Positions 30,069-39,071 of a DNA stretch of 44,061 nucleotides are shown here, one piece after another. The stretch is from sequence record PP920550.1. One strand, given 5' to 3'. The DNA comes from Escherichia phage Dru_SM5. Positions within the stretch are counted from its first letter, which is position 1, and each line of letters opens with the position of its first letter. The notes below the pieces were generated by a model, which searched no databases, was not told the origin of the DNA, and worked only from the letters and a program-made list of their open reading frames with translations. The position numbers and the translations under genes were made by a program.

Positions 30069-32360
30069 TTACTTCCTGTACCGGTACATACAATCGCCTT
30101 CAGCAGAGAGTGGGAAGCCTTTCGCCCATATCGGCAGGTCGCACATCAGCGCGCAAAGCTCCTCGGTCGTGTAGTCGTCGGTGTCCGGCACTTCGGTGAC
30201 CAATTCATCGTGCACTGACAGGACGATTTCATACCCGGCAGCTTCAACGCCTGGCATGGACCACGCGAGGATATCGCGACACAGCGCCTGTACGATGTTT
30301 TCCGTCAGTTTGCCGCCGTAGGTGTACTGGAATCCCCACTGGCGCGTCGTCTGATTCTCGCCCTGGTATTTGATGCGTGTGCTGGTGCGCTTCTTGCCGG
30401 TGTCTTCGTCGATCTCGGTCGTGACAGACAGCGCGATACCGGGATAGCTCATGATGCGCCCCGACGGCAACTCAATTTTCAACCACCACCCCGCAGCGTT
30501 CGGGTCGTCGCGCTCCTCGTCGAAGGTTGGGTCGTGCTTCGCCTTCGTGCGCACAATCTTGAGCGCTTTTCTACCGTCTGGGCGAACGTTAGCGCCAGCC
30601 CAGTAGGCTTTGCCCGGATTGCGGATTGCACACAACACCGCGTCCTCAAGCTCGGCCCAAAATGCTACGGTCTTCGGGTGGGCCTCACGCCACATGCGTT
30701 TGATCGCGTCGCATGTCAGCCATACATTTTTAGGCAGTATGTAGGTTGGGCGCTCGTCTTTCTTGCCAGGCTTCGGCGGGCGCTTCGCTTCGTTAATGCG
30801 GGCGTATTCATAACCCCGTTTAGCCGCTGCCCAAATGTGATCCGGGAACGTGCCTTTCATGACGTCCGCCATAGTGTAAAGGTCGAGGCCCAGGTTTTTA
30901 GCGAACTGTAAGAACGCCGCCACGCCGCCACCATAGCCCAGTCCCAACTCACACGCCTTACCGATCTGGCGCAAGTCTTTGCGGTTGGCTTTGATGTAAT
31001 CCGGGTCAAGGCCGAACATCTTACCGGCAGTCTCGCAATAGATATCGCGCCCGGCCTTAAACACCATTAGCGCGGTTTTCTCGCCAGCGATCCAGGCAAG
31101 GCCGCGCCCTTCCACGTTGGAGAAGTCAGCTACGACAAACTTCTTGCCCTTTGCAGGGATAATGCAGCTGCGTACGGTAGATGCTGTCAGCTTCGATATG
31201 TCGTACGCCCAGTGTGCGGTCCCGCGTAACAGGGAATTGATGCCGTTGGTGAGCATGTGCGACCGGACCCAAAACGACACGTCGCTTTCACCATCACGGC
31301 GCTTGATCTTGCCTTCGTGGTCGTCGCTGTACTCGCCACGCGCCAGGTTTTGAGGCTGAAAACCTTTACCGGCCCAACGCAGTGTACGCTTTGCCCCACC
31401 ATACTGAATGCAACCACGGCGGCGTCCATCGGCAGACAGGCCGTTGACGAGCGGATTATACTTAGTAGATGCCGTTGATGACGCACCGAGACGCATCTCA
31501 ATCAGCGCTTTGCCCTCGTCGGGGAAGTCCGGGTCTTCAAGCAGGTCGTTAAGTGTGGATTTCTGCGCGTTGTGGATTGTGAACGCCGGGGCGATATCAC
31601 GCAGGATTGGCAGGAAGTCATTGCCTGTCAGTTTACCACCAAATCGCTCCCAGGCTTCCTCCTTCAATTCTTCCTTATGCGCCTGCACCGCTTTGATCGC
31701 GGCGTTCGCCAGATCAACGTCCACATAGAAGCCGCGGTCGTTGATCAACTGGTCGATAAGCAGGATTTCATCTTCCTTCGGGGTATTACCCCAGTCCGGT
31801 ATGCGCCAGTAGACCTCCCGCATCGCGATAATATCCAGCGCGGCATATCGCAGAAATTTGGCCCATTCTTCAGGGTGAGTCTCGCGAGTGTAGCGGCGGA
31901 TTTTGTAAGTCTTAGGGGTCGGCTTACAGAATCGTTTAATCAGCGCCTTGCCTGCCTTATCCTTCGCGTGCTCTGCGTCAACGCCCAGAACCTGACACTG
32001 CATATCGAGGCTACCCGGCAGCGCGTGGCGAAAGGCCATAATCATGGTGTCTTCGATCTGGCTTACCGGCAGGTCAATACCCCACTTCTCACGGATAACC
32101 AGGCGGTCAAACAGGAGGCCGTTAGCCATCACGATTTTTGCTTTCTTGCGGGATACATGGCGGAGCGCCTTGCGCAGTTCACGCGGCATTGTGGGGGATT
32201 CAGTGGCATCCCATGTCTGCACGCGGCCTTCGTCGATGGCGTAGGTGCAAATCATAATCTCGGTGGTTGGGTGCTCTGCGTAGGCGTACGCCCCTACTTT
32301 CTTCAGGTCAACCCCGCTGAATGTCTCGGTGTCGAGAAACAAGCGTTCGAAGTCTTTCAT
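30069..32360 (-). CDS. family A DNA polymerase with 3'-5' exonuclease domain
   Basis: Exo I-like LFLDTETFSG; Pol motif A-like VVADFSNVEGRGLAWIAGE; motif B-like QIGKACELGLGYGGG; motif C VLSVHDELV. 763 aa. Confidence 0.8.
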   Translation of the reverse strand: MKDFERLFLDTETFSGVDLKKVGAYAYAEHPTTEIMICTYAIDEGRVQTWDATESPTMPRELRKALRHVSRKKAKIVMANGLLFDRLVIREKWGIDLPVSQIEDTMIMAFRHALPGSLDMQCQVLGVDAEHAKDKAGKALIKRFCKPTPKTYKIRRYTRETHPEEWAKFLRYAALDIIAMREVYWRIPDWGNTPKEDEILLIDQLINDRGFYVDVDLANAAIKAVQAHKEELKEEAWERFGGKLTGNDFLPILRDIAPAFTIHNAQKSTLNDLLEDPDFPDEGKALIEMRLGASSTASTKYNPLVNGLSADGRRRGCIQYGGAKRTLRWAGKGFQPQNLARGEYSDDHEGKIKRRDGESDVSFWVRSHMLTNGINSLLRGTAHWAYDISKLTASTVRSCIIPAKGKKFVVADFSNVEGRGLAWIAGEKTALMVFKAGRDIYCETAGKMFGLDPDYIKANRKDLRQIGKACELGLGYGGGVAAFLQFAKNLGLDLYTMADVMKGTFPDHIWAAAKRGYEYARINEAKRPPKPGKKDERPTYILPKNVWLTCDAIKRMWREAHPKTVAFWAELEDAVLCAIRNPGKAYWAGANVRPDGRKALKIVRTKAKHDPTFDEERDDPNAAGWWLKIELPSGRIMSYPGIALSVTTEIDEDTGKKRTSTRIKYQGENQTTRQWGFQYTYGGKLTENIVQALCRDILAWSMPGVEAAGYEIVLSVHDELVTEVPDTDDYTTEELCALMCDLPIWAKGFPLSAEGDCMYRYRK

Positions 32361-32527
32361 TGCTTTATCCTCACTACGGCGTCAGCGCTGCCGATCATGG
32401 AGAAGATGCCGTCGGACAGGGCGATCTCTTCTCCATTGTTGCGAATCTCGGCAACTGTGAAATACTCGCCCAGCAATTTGGACCATACCTGCATTCCGAC
32501 TTTTACTTCGCTGGCTTTAATACGCAT
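32357..32527 (-). CDS. small hypothetical ORF translationally coupled to DNA polymerase
   Basis: 55 aa ORF (MRIKASEVKVGMQVWSKLLGEYF...) whose TGA stop overlaps the polymerase ATG (ATGA). Below the track size cut-off; weak RBS. Confidence 0.3.
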   Translation of the reverse strand: MRIKASEVKVGMQVWSKLLGEYFTVAEIRNNGEEIALSDGIFSMIGSADAVVRIKQ

Positions 32528-32541
32528 TTTTCATTGTCCTA

Positions 32542-32567
32542 TTAAAAAGCCCGCATTAAGCGGGCTT
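32542..32567 (-). terminator. minus-strand intrinsic terminator
   Basis: Minus strand: AGCCCGC-ttaat-GCGGGCT followed by TTTTT, after the SSB-like gene. Confidence 0.5.
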
Positions 32568-32585
32568 GAATAGTGGGCTTTGCCC

Positions 32586-33308
32586 TTAACGGCGGCGACG
32601 TTTACGTGGCGCTTCGTCTTCGTCGTCGTCCTCATCTTCGTCATCGCGTGGCTTACGACGTTTGCGAGGTTTTTCATCTTCCTCATCGTCATCACGACGT
32701 TTTGACTTTTTGGACTTACGCGGGCTTTCGTCTTCGTCGTCGTTGTCCAGGTCTTCATCGGAGCAAGACGACCCGCCACCTCCGAAGGCTTCGCCGTCTT
32801 CACGGAATCGCAGACCCAGCAATCCAGCCCCGAGACCCTTGCCGTTGGTATTGTTCCACGCCCAAATATCCAGGGACACATTGCAATAACAACCGGAGTA
32901 GATCTCCCGGCCTTCGATCTCGTCGCCTTCTACGGTCAGACCTTGTTCCGTCTGCTTCTCGCCGAGTGACGTTTGAATGATCGGCTGTTTGAACGATTTG
33001 GCGTTGATGTACAACATGCCTTCGAATTCTTCGGTTACTTCGTCGCGCTCGTCACCGTCGCGAACTGCGCATTCCTTAGAATCCTGGGCGTAGTGGCGGT
33101 CCATCCACTTATCGGCATTCTTCTCGGATTTCAGCTTATCGGTGAGCACTGCGCGCGCTGCCGCTTCCACTTTGTCCACCTGCGGATCTTCTTTATCCAG
33201 AAGAATCACGGCACGGTATGCCGGTTTTTGTCCATCCTGTTTAGGGGTATCACGTTCCCAAATTTTAAGGAAGCATACGCGCACATTTTTCAGGTTGACT
33301 TTAGCCAT
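32586..33308 (-). CDS. putative ssDNA-binding protein with mixed-charge C-terminal tail
   Basis: ATG at 33308 follows a GAGGAA RBS. Globular N-terminal roughly 170 aa, then a Gly-rich linker and a roughly 60 aa tail of alternating acidic and basic clusters ending RKRRRR. SSB call is tentative. Confidence 0.45.
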   Translation of the reverse strand: MAKVNLKNVRVCFLKIWERDTPKQDGQKPAYRAVILLDKEDPQVDKVEAAARAVLTDKLKSEKNADKWMDRHYAQDSKECAVRDGDERDEVTEEFEGMLYINAKSFKQPIIQTSLGEKQTEQGLTVEGDEIEGREIYSGCYCNVSLDIWAWNNTNGKGLGAGLLGLRFREDGEAFGGGGSSCSDEDLDNDDEDESPRKSKKSKRRDDDEEDEKPRKRRKPRDDEDEDDDEDEAPRKRRRR

Positions 33309-33405
33309 TTTCCAATTCCTCATTTTCACATGTATCGGGGTTATTGGAAGCCACCCCGTTCGGCTTGGTTGCTAATTTACTTGGTTGCGCCTAAGCGGTC
33401 AAGCT

Positions 33406-33639
33406 TTATTTATCAAAAAGTTTTAAAATCAGGTCGAGATATTTGTGCAGCCACACCAGCGGCGGGCGGTGCACGTTGTTTTCCATCCAGTTAAGGCAGG
33501 CTTCGTTATAGCCGTCGTCCCATACGCGGGATGGGTGGCGAATCATCCAGGCTAACGCCAGCAGACCGCCGCAGGTATGTACTACGAATCCCAGTGCCGC
33601 CAACGGCAGCACCAAAATCATCGCCATAATCTTATTCAT
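33406..33639 (-). CDS. small membrane protein
   Basis: 77 aa with an N-terminal TM helix (MAMILVLPLAALGFVV). Confidence 0.45.
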   Translation of the reverse strand: MNKIMAMILVLPLAALGFVVHTCGGLLALAWMIRHPSRVWDDGYNEACLNWMENNVHRPPLVWLHKYLDLILKLFDK

Positions 33640-35062
33640 TGCTTAAGTCCTCGTCAGTAGCTTCCGACCACGCAGGGCGCGGGTCGTCGATTGGTGCTAA
33701 CACCGGTTTGGCTGGTGCGCGCGTGATTTTATCACACAGCTTCGCCCACACTTTCGGTTTTTCGTCCTTCAGTACCTTCTCGGCATCCGTAGGGCTGAGC
33801 AATGTTTCTTTGTACATCACATCGCGCTTGATCCGGGCCTTCGTGAAGATTTCAATAACTTCGCTCTCGTCCGCCCACTTACGGATCCCTTCCTTACCGG
33901 CAACCATCTTGAGGCCCAGCGATTCGCCATCGCCCGCCATTACCGCTTTGAATACCGCGGACTCGATAGCTTTGATGTGCTGGCGCATTGCGTCCAGGCC
34001 TTCATAAGCCTTGCGCAGTTCCGCAGCGCTCATAGCGCCTGGGGCCGCTTCTTTCTTGCCACGCTTCGCACGTCGTGCCGCTTTGCGGGCTTCGCGGGCC
34101 ATATTGCGGTCGTGATTGGCGCATTCTTCCTCTGTCGCAATACTTACGTCGTCGCCCAGGTCTTCGTCTGTTGCCGTTGGTGGGGTCATCGTGTCGATTG
34201 CAGCCTTAGCGCGGGCGCTACACTGATCCGCAAATCTGCACCACTGACACGCATCAACGCTCGGTCGGAAGTCGGCACGGGTGAGTCCCTTTTTGCCGCG
34301 GGCGTACGCTTCCAGGGCGGCGATAGCACGCTTTGACGCAAACTTAGCGAATATCTCCAGGGCTTCTACCGAAATATCCCACTCCGACGCCCCGCCGCAA
34401 TACGGCTGGAAGATAACCAGGCGCACGGTCGTGATGTCGTACATGGATTGCAGCTTGCGCAGCAGGCCGAGCGCGTACAACATAAGCTGTTTGTTTTCTT
34501 TCGCCTCGACCTTATGCCGCCCGGTCTTCAGGTCGCCAACAATCAGCATGTACGTGCCGTCGGTCTTCTTCATGACCATGACCATATCCGCAGTGCCGAA
34601 CGTCTTAACCCGGTTGCCGTCGATCTCGAAGCCAGAGTGTAGGACGCGGGTGAGATCGGCGCGCATCTCAAGCTGAACAAACTCCGCCACTTCGAGGAGC
34701 GGTCGCCAGTGGTCGATGTACGCGTCGCACTGTTTCACCATGTCGTCGTTGACCAGTACGCCGCCTTTCGGTGCTTTCGGGTGGGCCTTTACAGGCCCCT
34801 TACCTTCGTTCTCGACGTAACACCCTTTGTACGTCTTAGCGGTTATCAGCTTCTCACCGGCGATAATACGGTTGAGCACGACTTCAGATACGGTGTGCAT
34901 ACTCGTACCGTTAATCGCCGCTTGCCCGGATTCGTTCGGGATACCCTGTTCTACCACCAGGGCGGCGGGGCAACCCATCCATTTTTTAGCACCGGATGGC
35001 CCGAGTAATGAATGTTCCGTATTACTACCGGATTGTGTTTTGCGCTTCGGTTTAATCGCCAT
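33632..35062 (-). CDS. PD-(D/E)xK nuclease with Fe-S Cys cluster (Cas4/RecB-like)
   Basis: 476 aa. N-terminal Cys (WMGCPA), PD-(D/E)xK-like core (GTADMVMV...IVGDLKTG...QLMLYALG), and C-terminal Cys triad CQWCRFADQC typical of 4Fe-4S Cas4-family nucleases. Long charged C-terminal extension. Confidence 0.55.
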   Translation of the reverse strand: MAIKPKRKTQSGSNTEHSLLGPSGAKKWMGCPAALVVEQGIPNESGQAAINGTSMHTVSEVVLNRIIAGEKLITAKTYKGCYVENEGKGPVKAHPKAPKGGVLVNDDMVKQCDAYIDHWRPLLEVAEFVQLEMRADLTRVLHSGFEIDGNRVKTFGTADMVMVMKKTDGTYMLIVGDLKTGRHKVEAKENKQLMLYALGLLRKLQSMYDITTVRLVIFQPYCGGASEWDISVEALEIFAKFASKRAIAALEAYARGKKGLTRADFRPSVDACQWCRFADQCSARAKAAIDTMTPPTATDEDLGDDVSIATEEECANHDRNMAREARKAARRAKRGKKEAAPGAMSAAELRKAYEGLDAMRQHIKAIESAVFKAVMAGDGESLGLKMVAGKEGIRKWADESEVIEIFTKARIKRDVMYKETLLSPTDAEKVLKDEKPKVWAKLCDKITRAPAKPVLAPIDDPRPAWSEATDEDLSNE

Positions 35063-35250: not shown

Positions 35251-35502
35251 TTATTTTGTCTCCCAGCGGTCAATTGTTTTTGCTTCGGATGCAACTGCGA
35301 AGCGAACATATTCCAGATTGGAATCAGCCCAAATATAAAAGTCTGGATTAATAAAGGTGGTGCGCTTAATTTGCGCGGGAGTATTGCGGCGTTTATCTAT
35401 TACGGCAACGCGTGACTGAAAGTTGCCGATGCGTTCGAATAGCCAATAATAAGGGCGTTGGTCGCGTGAATCCACCGCCTCGATTAGCGTGAAGCGTGCC
35501 AT
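35251..35502 (-). CDS. hypothetical protein
   Basis: 83 aa with RBS GAGGA, immediately after a terminator hairpin. Confidence 0.45.
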   Translation of the reverse strand: MARFTLIEAVDSRDQRPYYWLFERIGNFQSRVAVIDKRRNTPAQIKRTTFINPDFYIWADSNLEYVRFAVASEAKTIDRWETK

Positions 35503-35550: not shown

Positions 35551-36066
35551 TTAATCTTCCAGTTCGAAATAGGTTTCGACGATTTCTTTTAGCTCTGTGT
35601 GGAAGTCTTCGACGTCGTCATCTTCCAGCTTGGCGATTGATTTGATCTCGAACGATTCCAGCAGGTCGTCGAATTCGTCGTTCGCATCGTCGTCGTCACC
35701 ACCGGCAATAATCGCGGCATACTGTTTGATCTCGTCGCGCATCTCTGCCAGCGGATCGGCATCTTTCTTGCCTTTGCCTTTTGCCGGTGCTTTTTTAGAC
35801 TTAGCCGGTTTTTCATCTTCGGCATCGTCGTCTTCTTCTTCTACGACTTCTTTTTTGGCCTTACCCTTCGCCGGTGCTTTTTTAGCTTTAGCCGGTTTTT
35901 CGTCTTCGGCGTCATCGTCGCCATCTTCGACAACTTCTTTTTTGGCCTTAGACGGCTTCTTGTCTTCCTGCTTACCAACGGCAGCGCCAACGGTTTCATA
36001 ATGCTTTGCAATGGTTTCCAGTGCTACTACGCCGCGAGTGATCAGGTTTACGATTTGCTCAAACAT
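35551..36066 (-). CDS. zwitterionic repeat protein (first gene of leftward early operon)
   Basis: ATG at 36066 follows a GGAGA RBS (171 aa). Two tandem roughly 30 aa repeats of KKEVVE-DDDAEDEKPAK-KKAPAKGK-KK, encoded by roughly 99 bp tandem DNA repeats (about 35765-35960). Highly acidic C-terminus. Confidence 0.6.
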   Translation of the reverse strand: MFEQIVNLITRGVVALETIAKHYETVGAAVGKQEDKKPSKAKKEVVEDGDDDAEDEKPAKAKKAPAKGKAKKEVVEEEDDDAEDEKPAKSKKAPAKGKGKKDADPLAEMRDEIKQYAAIIAGGDDDDANDEFDDLLESFEIKSIAKLEDDDVEDFHTELKEIVETYFELED

Positions 36067-36806: not shown

Positions 36807-39071
36807 ATGAGCTTAATTAAATTCGCTGTAACACGACCCGCTAAAAAAGGCGAAAAAGCCAGGGCGGAAAACTTCCAGATGACTACCGAAGAGTTTTTCG
36901 AATTTATCAATGACGCGAAAGAAATCTCCTCGGTGCATATTAACAAAACGGAAGATAAAGCGGAGTATGCACGCCGCAAGCGTAAGGCCGATGGCATTGT
37001 GGCTTATACCAGTGACGGCTTACGTCGCAAGACCAGTGCGGTGGACCGCTCGATCCTGTTCTTCGATATCGACCGTACTGACACCCGCACCCTGCGCCGC
37101 TGCCGTAAGGCGTTCATCGACGCGGGACTGGAACATGTATTTCACACCACTACCGGCGACCGCCACCCGCTGAAAGGGGGCACGCGTTGCGCTCGTTTCC
37201 TGGTGCTCACCGATAAGCCTGTACCGGCTGAAGACCTGGGCCGCGTCCAGTATGCACTATTACACCAACTGGGTCTGTCAGATGTGGACTTCGACGATTG
37301 CACGAAAGACACAAACCGCCTGATGTACCTGCCACACCAGCAGTCTGTTATTAAGTGCCACTACGGCAAGCGTGCCCGCGTCCGTCGTCTGCTTCGCCTG
37401 GCTGATAAGCTGGGAATGGAAAAAGAGGAAGTACGACGCGAACTGACCCAGGGCGATGACGGCGTGGCGGACGGTATTCTGGATTGGTGCTTCCAGGCAG
37501 GATTCGAACCGCTGTCGTCCGGTCGTGGTTATGAAGTGCCATGCCCGAACGAACACCTGCACAGTGGTGAAGGGTCCACCGCTATCATGGTTAAGGATGG
37601 CGAGATCCGTTTCAAGTGTATGCACACCGGCAACGAGTGTTGCTCGGAACTGAACAGACACCAGCACCTGGCGCTACGTCTTATCGGGATCCCGGACCAC
37701 CTGAACGTCGAACCGCACAACATGTCACGTAAGCAAATCGCCGCCATCCTCCCAGGTCTGGACGACGAGGAAGTGGAATCGTGCTATGAACATATCGTTG
37801 ATGCGGTCGGAGACGGCGACGAGTACGGCGTGTGTACTGATGCAGACCTGGACAACGAGCCGGTCGCACTGTTCAGTAAGCACGACCCGATCATCGAAGG
37901 CCTGGTCAACTTCAAATCGACCTGGTATCTCGCCGGTGAGTCGAACATTGGCAAGTCGTTCTACGTGCTGGGCCAGATGGCGTCAGTATCTGCCGGTATT
38001 CCGTTCGGCGGTGCGAAGGTCGTCCAGTCTCATTGCTTCTATTTCGATGCGGAAGGTGGTGAGGCCCCCAACCAGCGTAAAGAAGCATTGCAGATTAAAT
38101 ACGAGCACGACCTGGACAAGCTGCACATTATAGACCTGCAGTCACGCGGCTGGGATATCACCAGCAAATCAGGCTTGCGCGAAGTTATCAGCTTTATCAA
38201 CCGCACCGCTAACGGCGAACCGGTTGGCCTGGTGGCGTTCGACTCACTCAACCAGACTGTTGCGTTGCGGTCCGCTGATGCTAAACCGTTCGACGAGAAC
38301 AACGCCAGCGATATGGGTGAAGTGGTCAAAGCGCTGAAGGCCATCGCGGAAAATACAGGTGGCAGTGCGGGCGTCATCCACCACCCGGCTAAAGGTGCAA
38401 ACGGCAGCAGAACCCCCCGAGGGTCCGGCGCGCTGCATGGTGCTGTCGATTCTGCGTTCTTCCTGGAACAGCCGGACGACAACCAGCCCGGACAATTGAA
38501 CCTGTATCATGAGAAGTCACGTAACGGCATCAAGCAAGCGCCGCGCGGCTTCGTCCTGCTCAAGTGCAAGGTGAAGGTGGATCTCCGCAAGTCAGAAGCG
38601 TTCGAGGCGCACCAGTCCACCAGCACCGGGCCAGACTTCGGCGACGTGGTTGCCGGATGGGACGTCAAGCCGATTGCCTCCACGCCACGCGACGAGACTC
38701 TCTACCTCGTACCGGTTGCCCTGGCACCGTTCGCTATTGAACAGGCGAAGGCCTCGGGCAAAGCAGCAGTTAAAGAAGAGAACACCGCCGGACCGCGCAA
38801 CGAAAAAGAGAAAGTGCTTTATGCGGCACTGGAAAAACTGATGGAAGATAACCCGGACCATACTGGATTCAGTAAATCGGCAATTGTCCGCCAGGCTGGG
38901 CTGGCAAAAGGTGGCACTTCGACGAAGGCAATCGACGATATGGTGGAGCGAGGAGTGATAGGTTTTTACACCGATCCGCACACTGGGGCCATCTATGGGT
39001 CGTCTAATTTGGTCATCAAATCGGATATCCCTATCACGCTTTCAGCGACCGATGACGACTTAAAAGATTAA
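36807..39071 (+). CDS. DNA primase/helicase (primase-polymerase-like N-terminus + P-loop ATPase)
   Basis: N-terminal FFDIDRTD (AEP/prim-pol-like DxD), a Cys/His zinc-binding segment, Walker A GESNIGKS and Walker B LVAFDSLNQ. 754 aa. Confidence 0.6.
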   Translation: MSLIKFAVTRPAKKGEKARAENFQMTTEEFFEFINDAKEISSVHINKTEDKAEYARRKRKADGIVAYTSDGLRRKTSAVDRSILFFDIDRTDTRTLRRCRKAFIDAGLEHVFHTTTGDRHPLKGGTRCARFLVLTDKPVPAEDLGRVQYALLHQLGLSDVDFDDCTKDTNRLMYLPHQQSVIKCHYGKRARVRRLLRLADKLGMEKEEVRRELTQGDDGVADGILDWCFQAGFEPLSSGRGYEVPCPNEHLHSGEGSTAIMVKDGEIRFKCMHTGNECCSELNRHQHLALRLIGIPDHLNVEPHNMSRKQIAAILPGLDDEEVESCYEHIVDAVGDGDEYGVCTDADLDNEPVALFSKHDPIIEGLVNFKSTWYLAGESNIGKSFYVLGQMASVSAGIPFGGAKVVQSHCFYFDAEGGEAPNQRKEALQIKYEHDLDKLHIIDLQSRGWDITSKSGLREVISFINRTANGEPVGLVAFDSLNQTVALRSADAKPFDENNASDMGEVVKALKAIAENTGGSAGVIHHPAKGANGSRTPRGSGALHGAVDSAFFLEQPDDNQPGQLNLYHEKSRNGIKQAPRGFVLLKCKVKVDLRKSEAFEAHQSTSTGPDFGDVVAGWDVKPIASTPRDETLYLVPVALAPFAIEQAKASGKAAVKEENTAGPRNEKEKVLYAALEKLMEDNPDHTGFSKSAIVRQAGLAKGGTSTKAIDDMVERGVIGFYTDPHTGAIYGSSNLVIKSDIPITLSATDDDLKD

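Follow-up and report, generated by a model that had tools for sequence, protein, structure and literature searches.

The locus studied lies within a window of 44,061 nucleotides from Escherichia phage Dru_SM5 (PP920550.1), this being the whole stretch of DNA that was analysed, and its features are collected in Table 1. The window is that of a Dhillonvirus, and its SSB gene matches 154 Dhillonvirus records with 80-96% nucleotide identity. The start assigned is the ATG at 33308 (MAKVNLKN...), preceded by GAGGAA and used by all close homologues, the published SECphi4 and SECphi18 sequences included; the longest open reading frame call begins upstream of it, at a GTG (33329). A candidate promoter precedes the gene and is weak by itself, as the consensus scan gave one site where 1.2 were expected. 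The terminator-like hairpin that follows the gene was missed by a simple terminator scan; its RNA fold has an energy of -24.6 kcal/mol (z = -4.9) and none of 200 shuffles was equally stable.

The SSB gene belongs to a module formed by an SNF2 helicase, VRR-NUC, PolA, SSB and the DUF2800 exonuclease, which is kept in loci of both tail types described below. The exonuclease and the family-A polymerase stand beside the SSB gene as its replication context, the former matching phrog_69 ("exonuclease") with E = 1.6e-106. The primase-helicase is so named in Table S2 of Stokar-Avihail (bioRxiv 10.1101/2022.08.27.505566) and in the HK578 record, and within the flanks of the loci it was seen only in the clade of the query.

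Table 1. Coordinates of the SSB gene of Dru_SM5, of the segments of its product and of related features in the window.
Feature	Position	Strand	Description
SSB gene	32586..33308	-	240 aa + stop; DUF2815 / Enc34-type / Gp2.5-like ssDNA-binding and annealing protein by profile
SSB coding sequence	33308..32589	-	stop codon 32588..32586
Candidate promoter	33374..33402	-	sigma-70-like, TTGACC-17-TAAATT, upstream of SSB gene; consensus scan
Terminator-like hairpin	32541..32567	-	AAGCCCGC-TTAAT-GCGGGCTT, then T run; 18 nt past SSB stop
56-aa ORF	32357-32527		between PolA and SSB gene
PolA	30069..32360	-	family-A DNA polymerase, 763 aa, net charge +7
Exonuclease	33632..35062	-	DUF2800 / PD-(D/E)XK, 476 aa, net charge +6; Pfam and PHROG
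Primase-helicase	36807..39071	+	754 aa, net charge -17; Pfam AAA_25
OB-fold domain	32784..33308	-	SSB residues 1-175, net charge -7; AF2, Foldseek
Gly/Ser linker	32766..32783	-	residues 176-181, GGGGSS; sequence, pLDDT < 50
Proximal acidic segment	32727..32765	-	residues 182-194, CSDEDLDNDDEDE; holds S-D-E-D-L (residues 183-187, nt 32748-32762)
Basic block 1	32694..32726	-	residues 195-205, SPRKSKKSKRR
Acidic block 2	32673..32693	-	residues 206-212, DDDEEDE
Basic block 2	32646..32672	-	residues 213-221, KPRKRRKPR
Acidic block 3	32613..32645	-	residues 222-232, DDEDEDDDEDE
C-terminal basic tip	32589..32612	-	residues 233-240, APRKRRRR
Exonuclease T-D-E-D-L, copy 1	34157-34171		residues 298-302
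Exonuclease T-D-E-D-L, copy 2	33644-33658		residues 469-473, three residues before the C-terminus
Primase-helicase C-terminal motif	39048-39062		end ...SATDDDLKD
Primase-helicase internal variant	37836-37850		CTDADLDNEP

The family of the protein is given by Pfam PF10991, which matches residues 3-193 with 109.8 bits (cutoff 26, E = 1.5e-31) and is present in all SSB homologues retrieved. The match to phrog_112 (E = 2.5e-55) and the pairing with an exonuclease are both those of the Gp2.5-like annealing group (PHROG 112). PF10991 is the only Pfam match, PF00436 (E. coli-type SSB) being absent, and the PDB entries matched by sequence are 4KLK, 4JG2 and 5ODJ/5ODK. The AF2 model has pLDDT > 90 across residues 1-170, and its top Foldseek matches are 4KLK, 5ODL, 5ODJ, 4JG2 and 1JE5, among them Enc34 ORF6 (E = 1e-11, TM 0.77) and T7 gp2.5; the E. 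coli-type SSBs 1QVC and 1EQQ gave E values of 0.5 or higher. The hallmark of the family is an OB beta-barrel capped by a long helix straight after strand beta2 (PMC5686142), and it is present in the model, where strands 2-20 and 30-38 lead into helices 43-59 and 62-72, all with pLDDT > 90. Four ssDNA-contacting residues of Enc34 align by HMMER with conserved or conservatively replaced residues (Trp150 = W149, Asn154 = N153, Arg112 = K104, Tyr30 = F13), and two are unconserved (Tyr156 to N155, Lys46 to A30), with W151 and K28 close by. By profile and by model, the protein is classed as an OB-fold protein of the T7-gp2.5 / Enc34-ORF6 type. A preliminary description of the window had predicted a phage SSB with an OB fold, which is borne out by PF10991, the PDB matches, AF2 and Foldseek, the structure prediction that it proposed for residues 1-170 having returned the fold. 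It also placed the gene next to the DNA polymerase, which is nearly right, a 56-aa ORF and the terminator-like hairpin lying between the two.

The tail that follows the linker comprises 59 residues (182-240), 27 of them D/E and 20 K/R, and falls into six blocks, acidic and basic in turn, with perfect segregation of charge. Along its charged residues the sign changes 5 times, versus 23.0 +/- 3.3 in shuffled tails, 0 of 20,000 shuffles reaching 5, and the kappa-like segregation index is 0.61 versus 0.11 (z = 9.3). The net charge is -7 for the tail and -14 for the whole SSB, and the 12 Arg codons of the tail are all CGT or CGC. In the AF2 model it is disordered (pLDDT ~50) and without contacts, except for a short helix at 184-187, and the model gives no confident docking of it. 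The purely acidic disordered tail with a hydrophobic or aromatic tip, a trait typical of the family and not part of the Pfam definition, is lacking. The basic blocks RKSKKSKRR, RKRRKPR and RKRRRR contain no strict (Lys/Arg)3(Ser/Thr)2 pentapeptide of the KRKST type and are similar to it in composition. Matches of the tail to PDB legumin and phrog_15004, and of a neighbouring protein to Pfam BUD22, were discarded as compositional.

The clade of basic-tipped charge-block tails was defined as the relatives at least 41% identical to the query SSB, and the basic tip as at least four K/R among the last six residues. Such a tip was identified in 38 of the 45 clade members, the other seven ending acidic, and in none of the 161 canonical relatives, 134 of which end with a hydrophobic or small residue. 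The charge-block architecture stays in frame in relatives down to ~41% identity, and by this sequence evidence the tail is a coding and maintained part of the protein. PRKRRRR terminates the SSB in every close Dhillonvirus examined and the number of internal blocks varies, with 2-4 copies among Dhillonviruses more than 90% identical; across the clade the tip drifts to PRRRRR, PRRRSR, KKKKKA or KPKARR. Tails of this kind are found in the clade of the query and in about three further lineages, whose independence was judged from nearest-neighbour identities, and recombination could have moved tail-coding segments among them. Acidic and basic residues of the tails follow D+E = 0.89 x (K+R) + 8.6 (r = 0.78), and the net charge is -6.6 +/- 3.6 while tail length spans 32-93 residues. 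The repeats add roughly balanced charge, so that the net charge of the tail remains at the canonical value, about -7.

These results also decide what is left of the preliminary reading of the tail. The Gly-rich linker and the alternating acidic and basic clusters ending in RKRRRR were correctly described, and the contrast with canonical tails is clear from the distribution of the basic tip. By this tip the tail is atypical of its family, but it does not replace the canonical acidic tail wholesale, the acidic D-D-L motif being kept in its first part and the net charge being -7 versus about -8 in canonical tails. Nucleic-acid condensation, given as an example of the different interaction mode then suggested, is unlikely, protamine-like condensation being disfavoured because both the tail and the protein are net negative.

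The extension might instead be a largely neutral low-complexity sequence, which GA-rich codon repeats would have generated through slippage or duplication and which would be tolerated as long as the tail is net acidic. The variable block number among closely related phages would fit this origin, the net-charge law could be the sole constraint, and one deposited genome carries a frameshift in the tail region. The block architecture and the basic end are however kept to ~41% identity and arose about four times, the tail type co-varies with the charge of the OB domain and the exonuclease (see below), the Arg codons are all optimal, and the charge segregation is beyond that of every shuffle. Recent DNA tandem repeats were rejected as the source of the blocks: TRF shows weak 6-nt/3-nt periodicity over 35 nt alone, and in a four-block relative the units share exact repeats of no more than 20 nt, so the duplications are not products of recent slippage. 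A neutral extension is on this evidence considered very unlikely. An alternative tail was a candidate and was rejected: the database proteins P0002 and P0003 have the tail in another frame, that of window ORF 32531-32881 on the minus strand, and in vB_EcoS-22664B1 the cause is a 2-nt insertion. Downstream of the insertion the normal frame still encodes a perfect ...APRKRRRR and stop, and we attribute the alternative frame to an error in sequencing or to a mutation of very recent date and do not regard it as an isoform.

The S-D-E-D-L of the proximal acidic segment corresponds to the D-D-F-D-D-L of canonical tails and is kept by the strict pattern in 39 of 45 clade members, the remaining six being four near-variants and two mis-parsed sequences. 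The same motif is carried twice by the exonuclease and at the end of the primase-helicase, which has an internal variant as well (Table 1). Among the 60 ORFs of the window, [ST]D[DE]DL has four occurrences, restricted to these three proteins, versus 0.065 in shuffled sequences, and two of the four copies are at most 3 residues from a C-terminus; as the pattern and the tail-type thresholds were set post hoc, after data inspection, the shuffle statistics overstate the significance. In the clade loci (L002-L013), the exonuclease C-terminus carries the motif in 12 of 12, and the primase-helicase carries it or a close variant (ADLE, EDLEN) at its C-terminus in nine, with other ends in L009, L010 and L013. 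Loci with canonical tails present a similar relation: in 36 of 52, the SSB tail is matched best by the C-terminus of the exonuclease, out of ~39 ORFs per locus (z = 3.4 versus shuffled tails), and own-locus exonuclease/SSB pairs beat cross-locus pairs in 5000 of 5000 permutations. Since exonuclease and primase-helicase terminate in this peptide as well, the proximal peptide of the SSB is most likely a shared docking peptide. The candidate peptides of this kind are SSCSDEDLDNDDEDE, WSEATDEDLSNE and LSATDDDLKD.

The tail type is associated with the charge of the OB domain, which is -7.7 +/- 2.5 in 42 basic-tipped proteins versus +2.0 +/- 2.5 in 163 canonical ones. The OB charge is -4 or lower in all of about four separate lineages with a basic tip, and between -2 and +5 in their nearest canonical neighbours. 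Only three of the 163 canonical-binned proteins reach -4, two of them from the clade of the query, and lineages with charge-block inserts but an acidic-hydrophobic tip have OB charges of +2 to +3. By alignment columns, the extra negative charge is located in residues 73-97 and 113-140 and includes a clade-specific acidic insertion. The exonuclease is shifted in the opposite direction, with a charge of +5.2 on the basic-tipped side versus -21.7 on the canonical one, and the independent P0181 lineage repeats this shift (+8 in the 248 C-terminal aa, a stretch for which none of 61 canonical exonucleases attains +4). A charge bias of the whole proteome was rejected as the cause of the OB shift because VRR-NUC is unchanged between tail types; PolA moves, like the exonuclease, opposite to the OB domain. 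If the inferences hold, a direct contact between SSB and exonuclease is to be expected from the anti-correlated charge shifts of the exonuclease and the SSB core.

As a weaker version of the condensation suggested earlier, the Arg/Lys blocks and the poly-Arg tip could be an extra nucleic-acid-binding or chaperone module, clamping the backbone, raising affinity and speeding up the annealing of strands made by the exonuclease. Peptides rich in arginine bind to nucleic acids and favour annealing, the annotation of the family is that of an SSB and annealing protein encoded beside an exonuclease, and the tail has its 20 K/R in blocks of 7-9 residues. The net charge of tail and protein speaks against such a module, as do the acidic blocks of equal or greater length that flank each basic block, the near-neutral repeat addition, which is unlike selection for more DNA affinity, and the acidic tail of Enc34 ORF6, which restricts dsDNA binding. 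The OB surface was acidified concurrently, and protein-protein electrostatics is therefore favoured over more DNA contact, which leaves the module unlikely.

The basic tip PRKRRRR could also be a charge-reversed docking peptide for an acidic partner surface. Such a surface could be that of a host factor, of the primase-helicase, whose net charge is -17, or of the acidic C-terminal ends of the latter and of the exonuclease. In the clade the canonical tip is gone from SSB and exonuclease alike, so that its former receptor has presumably been lost as well. The invariance of PRKRRRR in close relatives with variable internal blocks is in agreement with such a function, and so is the primase-helicase of the clade, strongly acidic (-20.7 +/- 5.7) and within the flanks only there. 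The drift of the tip across the clade, however, fits a need of composition rather than a specific pocket, and seven clade members end acidic. Docking by the tip, on any of the partners named, is judged decidedly unlikely.

The explanation favoured here, as a whole given a slightly better than even chance, is a two-layer tail in which a shared docking motif and basic blocks resembling the LAST of gp32 are joined to a T7-type SSB. Of its elements, the identity and fold of the protein, the anatomy of the tail, the sharing of the motif and the correlations of charge are shown, and the receptor of the motif and the part played by the basic blocks are inferred. The protein would coat ssDNA in phage replication and recombination, probably annealing it too, and would cooperate with the adjacent PD-(D/E)XK exonuclease, PolA and the primase-helicase. 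The first layer is the proximal acidic peptide, S/T-D-D/E-D-L and the acidic run, the form that D-D-F-D-D-L takes in this lineage, and would let SSB, exonuclease and primase-helicase compete for, or hand over at, one receptor. This receptor may be the polymerase, as in T7, where gp4 and gp2.5 compete through their acidic tails for basic patches of gp5 (bioRxiv 10.64898/2026.05.20.726333). The window PolA has basic-rich insertions relative to Enc34 PolA and is, by analogy with gp5, a candidate. Alternatively, the peptide may dock on the concave beta-sheet of an adjacent SSB, as in the crystal packing of DUF2815 and gp2.5, whose tails dock on the beta-sheet of the neighbour and bury 842 A2.

The second layer of this tail comprises the lineage-specific, repeat-expanded pairs of basic and acidic blocks, with PRKRRRR in place of the canonical acidic-hydrophobic tip, and in this lineage the OB domain has turned acidic. 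The Lys/Arg/Ser blocks may act like the LAST / B-domain of T4 gp32, binding acidic surfaces (OB patches, acidic tail blocks) of their own or a neighbouring SSB and transiently the DNA backbone, and these contacts would tune auto-inhibition and cooperative assembly on ssDNA. In gp32, cooperativity is brought about by the basic terminal peptide KRKST, and partner contacts are the task of an acidic domain, although recent mutagenesis questions a purely electrostatic contact between N-domain and core (PMC12893549). The blocks tolerate change, as their copy number is 2-4 among near-identical phages. A more far-reaching version, regarded as rather unlikely, combines a polarity swap in several lineages (acidic OB domain, basic exonuclease, Arg/Lys-block tail latching on the SSB) with a polyampholyte-driven filament or condensate on ssDNA and with T-D-E-D-L, common to SSB, exonuclease and primase-helicase, arbitrating the access of the three to one hub.

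A counter-defence change was considered as well, in which the tail would alter recognition by the SSB sensors Retron-Eco8, ShosTA, Hachiman, DARNA and AbpAB. Two of these systems are known to be triggered by the orthologue or to have it as a determinant of sensitivity: the SSB of the SECphi phages genetically triggers Retron-Eco8 and is mutated in ShosTA escapers (bioRxiv 10.1101/2022.08.27.505566). The known escape mutations lie, however, in the OB domain (T56P, N152H, F106V, T21P, F95L) or upstream of the gene, as do some published SECphi4 Retron-Eco8 escapers in the intergenic region, and none lies in the tail. Moreover, deletion of the T7 gp2.5 C-tail leaves Retron-Eco8 activation unaffected, DARNA is unaffected by loss of the terminal Phe of gp2.5, and Dhillonviruses with such tails stay sensitive to SSB-sensing systems. 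This origin of the tail is thus considered extremely improbable. HK578 gp43, a P2-OLD escaper, was proposed as a second charge-block protein and rejected, being an 83-aa ORF; the charge-block protein is gp44.

Phage SSBs are central to replication, recombination and the sensing of infection by Retron-Eco8, ShosTA, Hachiman and DARNA, and the Dhillonvirus SSB is an existing laboratory model (SECphi4/18, HK578, BASEL phages). Its role as a sensitivity determinant was already known. Its tail is left out of every published analysis of the protein found, the Retron-Eco8, DARNA and ShosTA literature examined treats the tails of T7 gp2.5 alone, and a search for polyampholyte or basic SSB tails, or for the SECphi4 tail, gave nothing relevant. 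The distribution of the basic-tipped tails, the shared motif, the balanced-charge repeats and the association with OB and exonuclease charge are new. If the proposal is true, the docking peptide of this SSB family would be the proximal D-D-(F/L), common to exonuclease and primase, and motif sharing would give a simple map of the competitors at the fork. The charge-block extension would offer a manageable natural setting in which to study how charge patterning of disordered tails tunes SSB cooperativity, and a contact between SSB and exonuclease would be relevant to recombineering tools derived from exonuclease/annealase pairs. The polarity swap, if real, would present, in compact form, a natural example of charge patterns that co-evolve between a disordered tail and its folded partners; should the inferences fail, the remainder is a well-annotated SSB with a lineage-specific low-complexity tail.

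The closest known proteins are the "predicted SSB (Gp2.5 family)" of SECphi4, SECphi6 and SECphi18, which are the same protein in sister Dhillonviruses and whose published model spans residues 1-186, the tail being neither displayed nor analysed (bioRxiv 10.1101/2022.08.27.505566). The SSB gene of SECphi18 is 93.9% identical in nucleotides, and the published SECphi4 and SECphi18 tails also end in PRKRRRR, with three basic blocks in SECphi4, as in Dru_SM5, and four in SECphi18. Enc34 ORF6 (5ODJ, 5ODK, 5ODL) is an experimentally shown SSB that binds ssDNA preferentially in vitro and whose acidic tail suppresses dsDNA binding (PMC5686142). It shares with the Dru_SM5 protein the PF10991 family and fold, the neighbourhood (DUF2800 exonuclease, SSB, PolA, VRR-NUC, helicase), and a disordered C-terminal tail opening with an acidic motif that has a hydrophobic residue in it, although identity is only ~22%. 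The tail motif recurs at the exonuclease and primase C-termini in Enc34 too, the three proteins all terminating in ...(Y/F)D(D/E)EDE..DEV. In Enc34 a purely acidic tail (-12) terminates in ...WDEDEV, the charge of the OB domain is 0 and that of the exonuclease -27, whereas Dru_SM5 has three basic blocks, the PRKRRRR end, an OB charge of -7 and an exonuclease of +6.

T7 gp2.5 (1JE5) has the same type of OB fold at 12-14% identity, and in T7, too, the C-terminal tails of SSB and primase-helicase are acidic and resemble each other. The tail of gp2.5 has acidic charge only and a terminal Phe that is essential; in the Dru_SM5 SSB the shared peptide is internal and followed by the charge-block extension. 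To our knowledge, no exonuclease tail takes part in the gp2.5/gp4/gp5 network of T7. The proposed likeness to T4 gp32 consists of a disordered Lys/Arg/Ser-Thr peptide for cooperativity and an acidic disordered domain for auto-inhibition or partners; the fold is unrelated and the Dru_SM5 SSB is no member of that family, and the basic and acidic elements, placed at opposite termini in gp32, are here interleaved in one tail. With E. coli-type SSB are shared the OB domain, a disordered linker, which in E. coli governs cooperativity, and a short C-terminal interaction motif. The E. coli type is a tetramer with the tip DDDIPF, whereas the Dru_SM5 SSB is of the monomer/dimer T7 type with a basic tip; the E. 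coli tip binds many partners, and in Dru_SM5 the partners themselves carry the motif.

The product of the SSB gene is a phage SSB/annealase. Pfam PF10991 (Enc34_ssDNA-bd, formerly DUF2815) matches residues 3-193 (E = 1.5e-31), PHROG 112 ('Gp2.5-like ssDNA binding protein and ssDNA annealing protein') matches the whole protein, and sequence matches to solved structures were those of DUF2815 (4KLK, 4JG2) and Enc34 ORF6 (5ODJ/5ODK). The structure prediction proposed for residues 1-170 in the preliminary description was run with AF2 on 87 homologues; this segment is modelled with pLDDT >90, disorder extends from residue 177 on, and the sole significant Foldseek matches are Enc34 ORF6 (TM 0.77), two other DUF2815 structures and T7 gp2.5, in agreement with the OB-fold SSB suggested there. 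Enc34 ORF6 is an SSB by experiment and its acidic tail restrains dsDNA binding (PMC5686142). The DNA-stacking Trp150, Asn154 and the basic Arg112 of Enc34 align with W149, N153 and K104 of the window SSB, whereas the positions aligned with Tyr156 and Lys46 are not conserved. The SECphi4/6/18 orthologue has been published as 'predicted SSB (Gp2.5 family)' (Stokar-Avihail et al., bioRxiv 10.1101/2022.08.27.505566); together with the homology evidence the assignment is therefore safe and, for Dhillonvirus, already known. The tail is unexplored: the published SECphi model comprises residues 1-186, omitting the 'flexible C-terminal residues' (Stokar-Avihail et al.), and a literature search for discussion of the Dhillonvirus SSB tail found no paper. 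New here are the common motif and the charge reversal (polarity swap), purely computational observations presented as testable hypotheses.

The window is a Dhillonvirus, with 154 matching phage records at 80-96% nucleotide identity and the gene order of Oekolampad and HK578. Unexpected names among these records are Campylobacter phage A144, an Acinetobacter phage, a Salmonella phage and Sodalis phages, some of which may be mislabelled or contaminants. The mechanical ORF listing starts SSB at a GTG located 21 nt upstream of the ATG; MAKVNLK at the ATG is the start of all homologues, published sequences included, and is preceded by GAGGAA. Having a sigma-70-like site upstream and a strong hairpin 3', the gene looks like its own expression unit.

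Features of the SSB gene, its surroundings and the copies of the common motif
Feature	Location	Strand	Remarks
SSB gene	ATG 33308, stop codon 32588-32586	minus	240 aa
Sigma-70-like site, weak	33402-33374		upstream of SSB
Hairpin and T run	32541-32567		18 nt 3' of SSB stop; -24.6 kcal/mol, z = -4.9
56-aa ORF	32357-32527	minus	phrog_10102; between SSB and PolA genes
PolA gene	30069-32360		minus strand; same flank of SSB gene, after the 56-aa ORF
DUF2800 exonuclease gene	33632-35062		other flank of SSB gene
83-aa ORF	35251-35502	minus	HK578 gp43 counterpart
Exonuclease motif, first copy	residues 298-302		internal
Exonuclease motif, second copy	three residues from C-terminus		...SEATDEDLSNE
Primase-helicase motif	two residues from C-terminus		...SATDDDLKD

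Escape mutations of SECphi4/SECphi6 were reported in the 56-aa ORF and its upstream intergenic region (Table S2, Stokar-Avihail et al.); judged by the table order, they apparently belong to the Borvo block. One of them, ATTAA->TTAAT, equals in sequence the 5-nt loop (TTAAT/ATTAA) of the post-SSB hairpin. Transcription that passes the end of the SSB gene and reaches the 56-aa ORF and PolA may be important. HK578 reportedly escapes P2 OLD defence via a single-nucleotide deletion in gp43 (bioRxiv 10.64898/2026.07.10.737580), and a Pfam search with its counterpart, the 83-aa ORF, gave no match.

The tail comprises 59 residues after GGGGSS, 27 D/E and 20 K/R, arranged in six perfectly segregated blocks and ending in PRKRRRR, as first read from the sequence. 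Charge changes sign 5 times along it versus 23 +/- 3.3 in shuffles, none of 20,000 shuffles being as segregated (segregation index ~0.6). All Arg codons of the tail are the optimal CGT or CGC. Only the opening residues are conserved in sequence (CSDEDLDNDD in the window, ATDDDLGDDD in relatives), unlike the remaining tail.

The family was sampled twice, as 120 clusters (word-indexed search) and as the best 150 of 2,083 representatives (exhaustive HMMER search). In this two-sample set, relatives of up to ~38% identity carry short acidic tails (~28 residues, net -8) with a D-D-F-D-D-L-type motif; the end is hydrophobic or small in 134 of these 161 canonical relatives and basic in none. To the 45 clusters of at least 41% identity (the polyR clade) twelve IMG/VR genomes, L002-L013, were added, and interleaved basic/acidic blocks were identified in every one of these members of the sampled family. 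At least four K/R occupy the last six residues in 38 of the 45 clusters, mostly as PRRRRR or PRKRRRR. Basic-ended tails appear in about three more lineages of the sampled relatives (proteins P0176/P0199, P0181 and P0226), whose nearest neighbours are canonical, and P0075, P0080, P0105/106/111, P0173 and P0192 have charge-block inserts with the acidic-hydrophobic tip retained.

Dhillonviruses more than 90% identical present 2 to 4 basic blocks in proteins of 218-261 aa, the final PRKRRRR being constant; a recent DNA repeat behind the varying block number was looked for and none was found. Clade-wide, D+E = 0.89 x (K+R) + 8.6 (r = 0.78), a slope by which each added unit is roughly charge-neutral, and the acidic excess stays canonical (~-7) at any length from 32 to 93 residues. 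Neutral low-complexity drift is a rival explanation of the extension. The disordered tail is a conserved acidic motif followed by an extension of expanded block repeats, roughly neutral in charge and basic at its end. The 'different interaction mode' proposed earlier is right in part, since the tip does depart from the canonical form; a better description of the tail itself is a canonical acidic one in which a charge-balanced basic/acidic extension has taken the place of the hydrophobic tip. Nucleic-acid condensation, also proposed, is disfavoured because both the tail (-7) and the whole protein (-14) have a negative net charge and because of the charge-neutral expansion; its milder form, a tail helping DNA clamping or annealing, remains a rival.

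In database proteins P0002 and P0003 the SSB tail is read in another frame (...MTKMKHRARL...GFLIGQ; window counterpart 32531-32881, minus strand). In vB_EcoS-22664B1 (L083, MZ234008.1 37985-38794) a 2-nt insertion right after the D-D-L motif shifts the frame, and downstream the normal one continues intact as far as APRKRRRR*. The shift is therefore probably a sequencing error or a recent mutation that was propagated into annotation, and the alternative-frame tail was rejected.

The tip co-varies with the charge of the OB domain, -7.7 +/- 2.5 in basic-tipped proteins (n = 42) versus +2.0 +/- 2.5 in canonical ones (n = 163), in categories fixed after the data were seen. The basic-tipped lineages, about four as judged by nearest-neighbour identity only, are all at -4 or below, and their nearest canonical neighbours at -2 to +5. 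Just 3 of the 163 canonical-binned proteins reach -4, two being short-tailed polyR clade members, and hydrophobic-tip lineages with charge-block inserts still have +2 to +3. The added negative charge maps to residues 73-97 and 113-140; part of it is an acidic insertion (E127, D129, E130) absent from canonical proteins. With mechanical ORF starts, exonuclease net charge is +5.2 +/- 4.0 in the clade versus -21.7 +/- 7.0 in canonical loci (Enc34 -27), and PolA moves from -1.5 (canonical) to +13.5 (clade). General compositional bias is ruled out, as the charge of VRR-NUC is the same in both groups. The partial exonuclease beside the independent basic-tipped SSB P0181 has +8 across its last 248 residues, compared with -8.4 +/- 3.6 in canonical exonucleases (0/61 reach +4). 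SSB core and exonuclease are of opposite net charge in the clade and in large contrast in canonical loci, with the direction reversed. A charge-reversed tip docking on a partner is a rival reading of the basic end.

Outside SSB, [ST]-D-[DE]-D-L was identified in only two other window proteins, exonuclease and primase-helicase (4 matches vs 0.065 expected, the SSB copy included). The exonuclease C-terminal copy is kept in 12/12 clade genomes and that of primase-helicase, or a close variant, in nine, L009, L010 and L013 ending differently. Such sharing is general for the replication module. Among 52 non-redundant canonical-tail loci (~39 ORFs each) the best match of the SSB tail is the exonuclease C-terminus in 36 (z = 3.4 vs shuffled tails), and exonuclease and SSB of one locus match better than pairs taken across loci in 5000/5000 permutations. 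Enc34 C-termini are alike (SSB ...DAYDEDEDEWDEDEV, exonuclease ...GAYDDEDEDDDEV, primase ...DPFDDEDEV), tail sharing across the module not being mentioned in the Enc34 structure paper, and the P0105 lineage (L087 4080-6783) has a ...DDVV end common to SSB and a 144-aa neighbour. In the clade, both SSB and exonuclease have lost the C-terminal hydrophobic half of the canonical bipartite tail.

In Enc34 (L084, NC_019524, 568-10334) SSB, exonuclease, primase and ORF3 end D/E-rich in ...DEV and the helicase in ...WDDEED. A second charge-block protein of the window module (35551-36057, minus; mechanical ORF to 36246) is phrog_3127, HK578 gp44, present with varying length in 154/154 Dhillonvirus records. 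Its N-terminal helix is followed by blocks that are in turn Lys/Ala/Pro-rich (PAKAKKAPAKGKAKK) and D/E, and NDEFDDLL in its acidic C-terminal part resembles the canonical DUF2815 tail motif. Compared with Enc34, window PolA has three insertions (residues ~344-354, ~505-556 and ~591-620), two of them Lys/Arg-rich: AKRPPKPGKKDERP, and GRKALKIVRTKAKH followed by acidic DPTFDEERDD.

The common motif would act as a docking peptide through which SSB, exonuclease and primase-helicase bind a single receptor, either PolA or the OB sheet of SSB. The Lys/Arg-rich PolA insertions could, in analogy to T7 gp5, be tail-binding patches. DUF2815 and gp2.5 tails in crystals dock on the concave beta-sheet of a neighbouring SSB, burying 842 Å2, and this sheet may be the receptor as an alternative to the polymerase. 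The basic blocks would offset the acidified OB surface, the tail still folding back on, or reaching across to, SSB molecules, and might also touch the DNA backbone; a blocky polyampholyte of this segregation would favour multivalent self-association. The SECphi4/6/18 SSB triggers Retron-Eco8, and ShosTA escapers carry mutations in the same gene. Counter-defence is a further rival reading of the tail; against it are the zero known escape mutations within the tail and T7 tail deletions without effect on the sensors tested. For docking through the common motif, a parallel is T7, in which gp2.5 and gp4 compete through their acidic tails for basic patches of the polymerase (bioRxiv 10.64898/2026.05.20.726333), a network mirrored by SSB, exonuclease and primase-helicase. 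For the extension a parallel would be T4 gp32, whose basic LAST / B-domain the basic blocks may resemble, the acidic blocks possibly taking the role of its A-domain.
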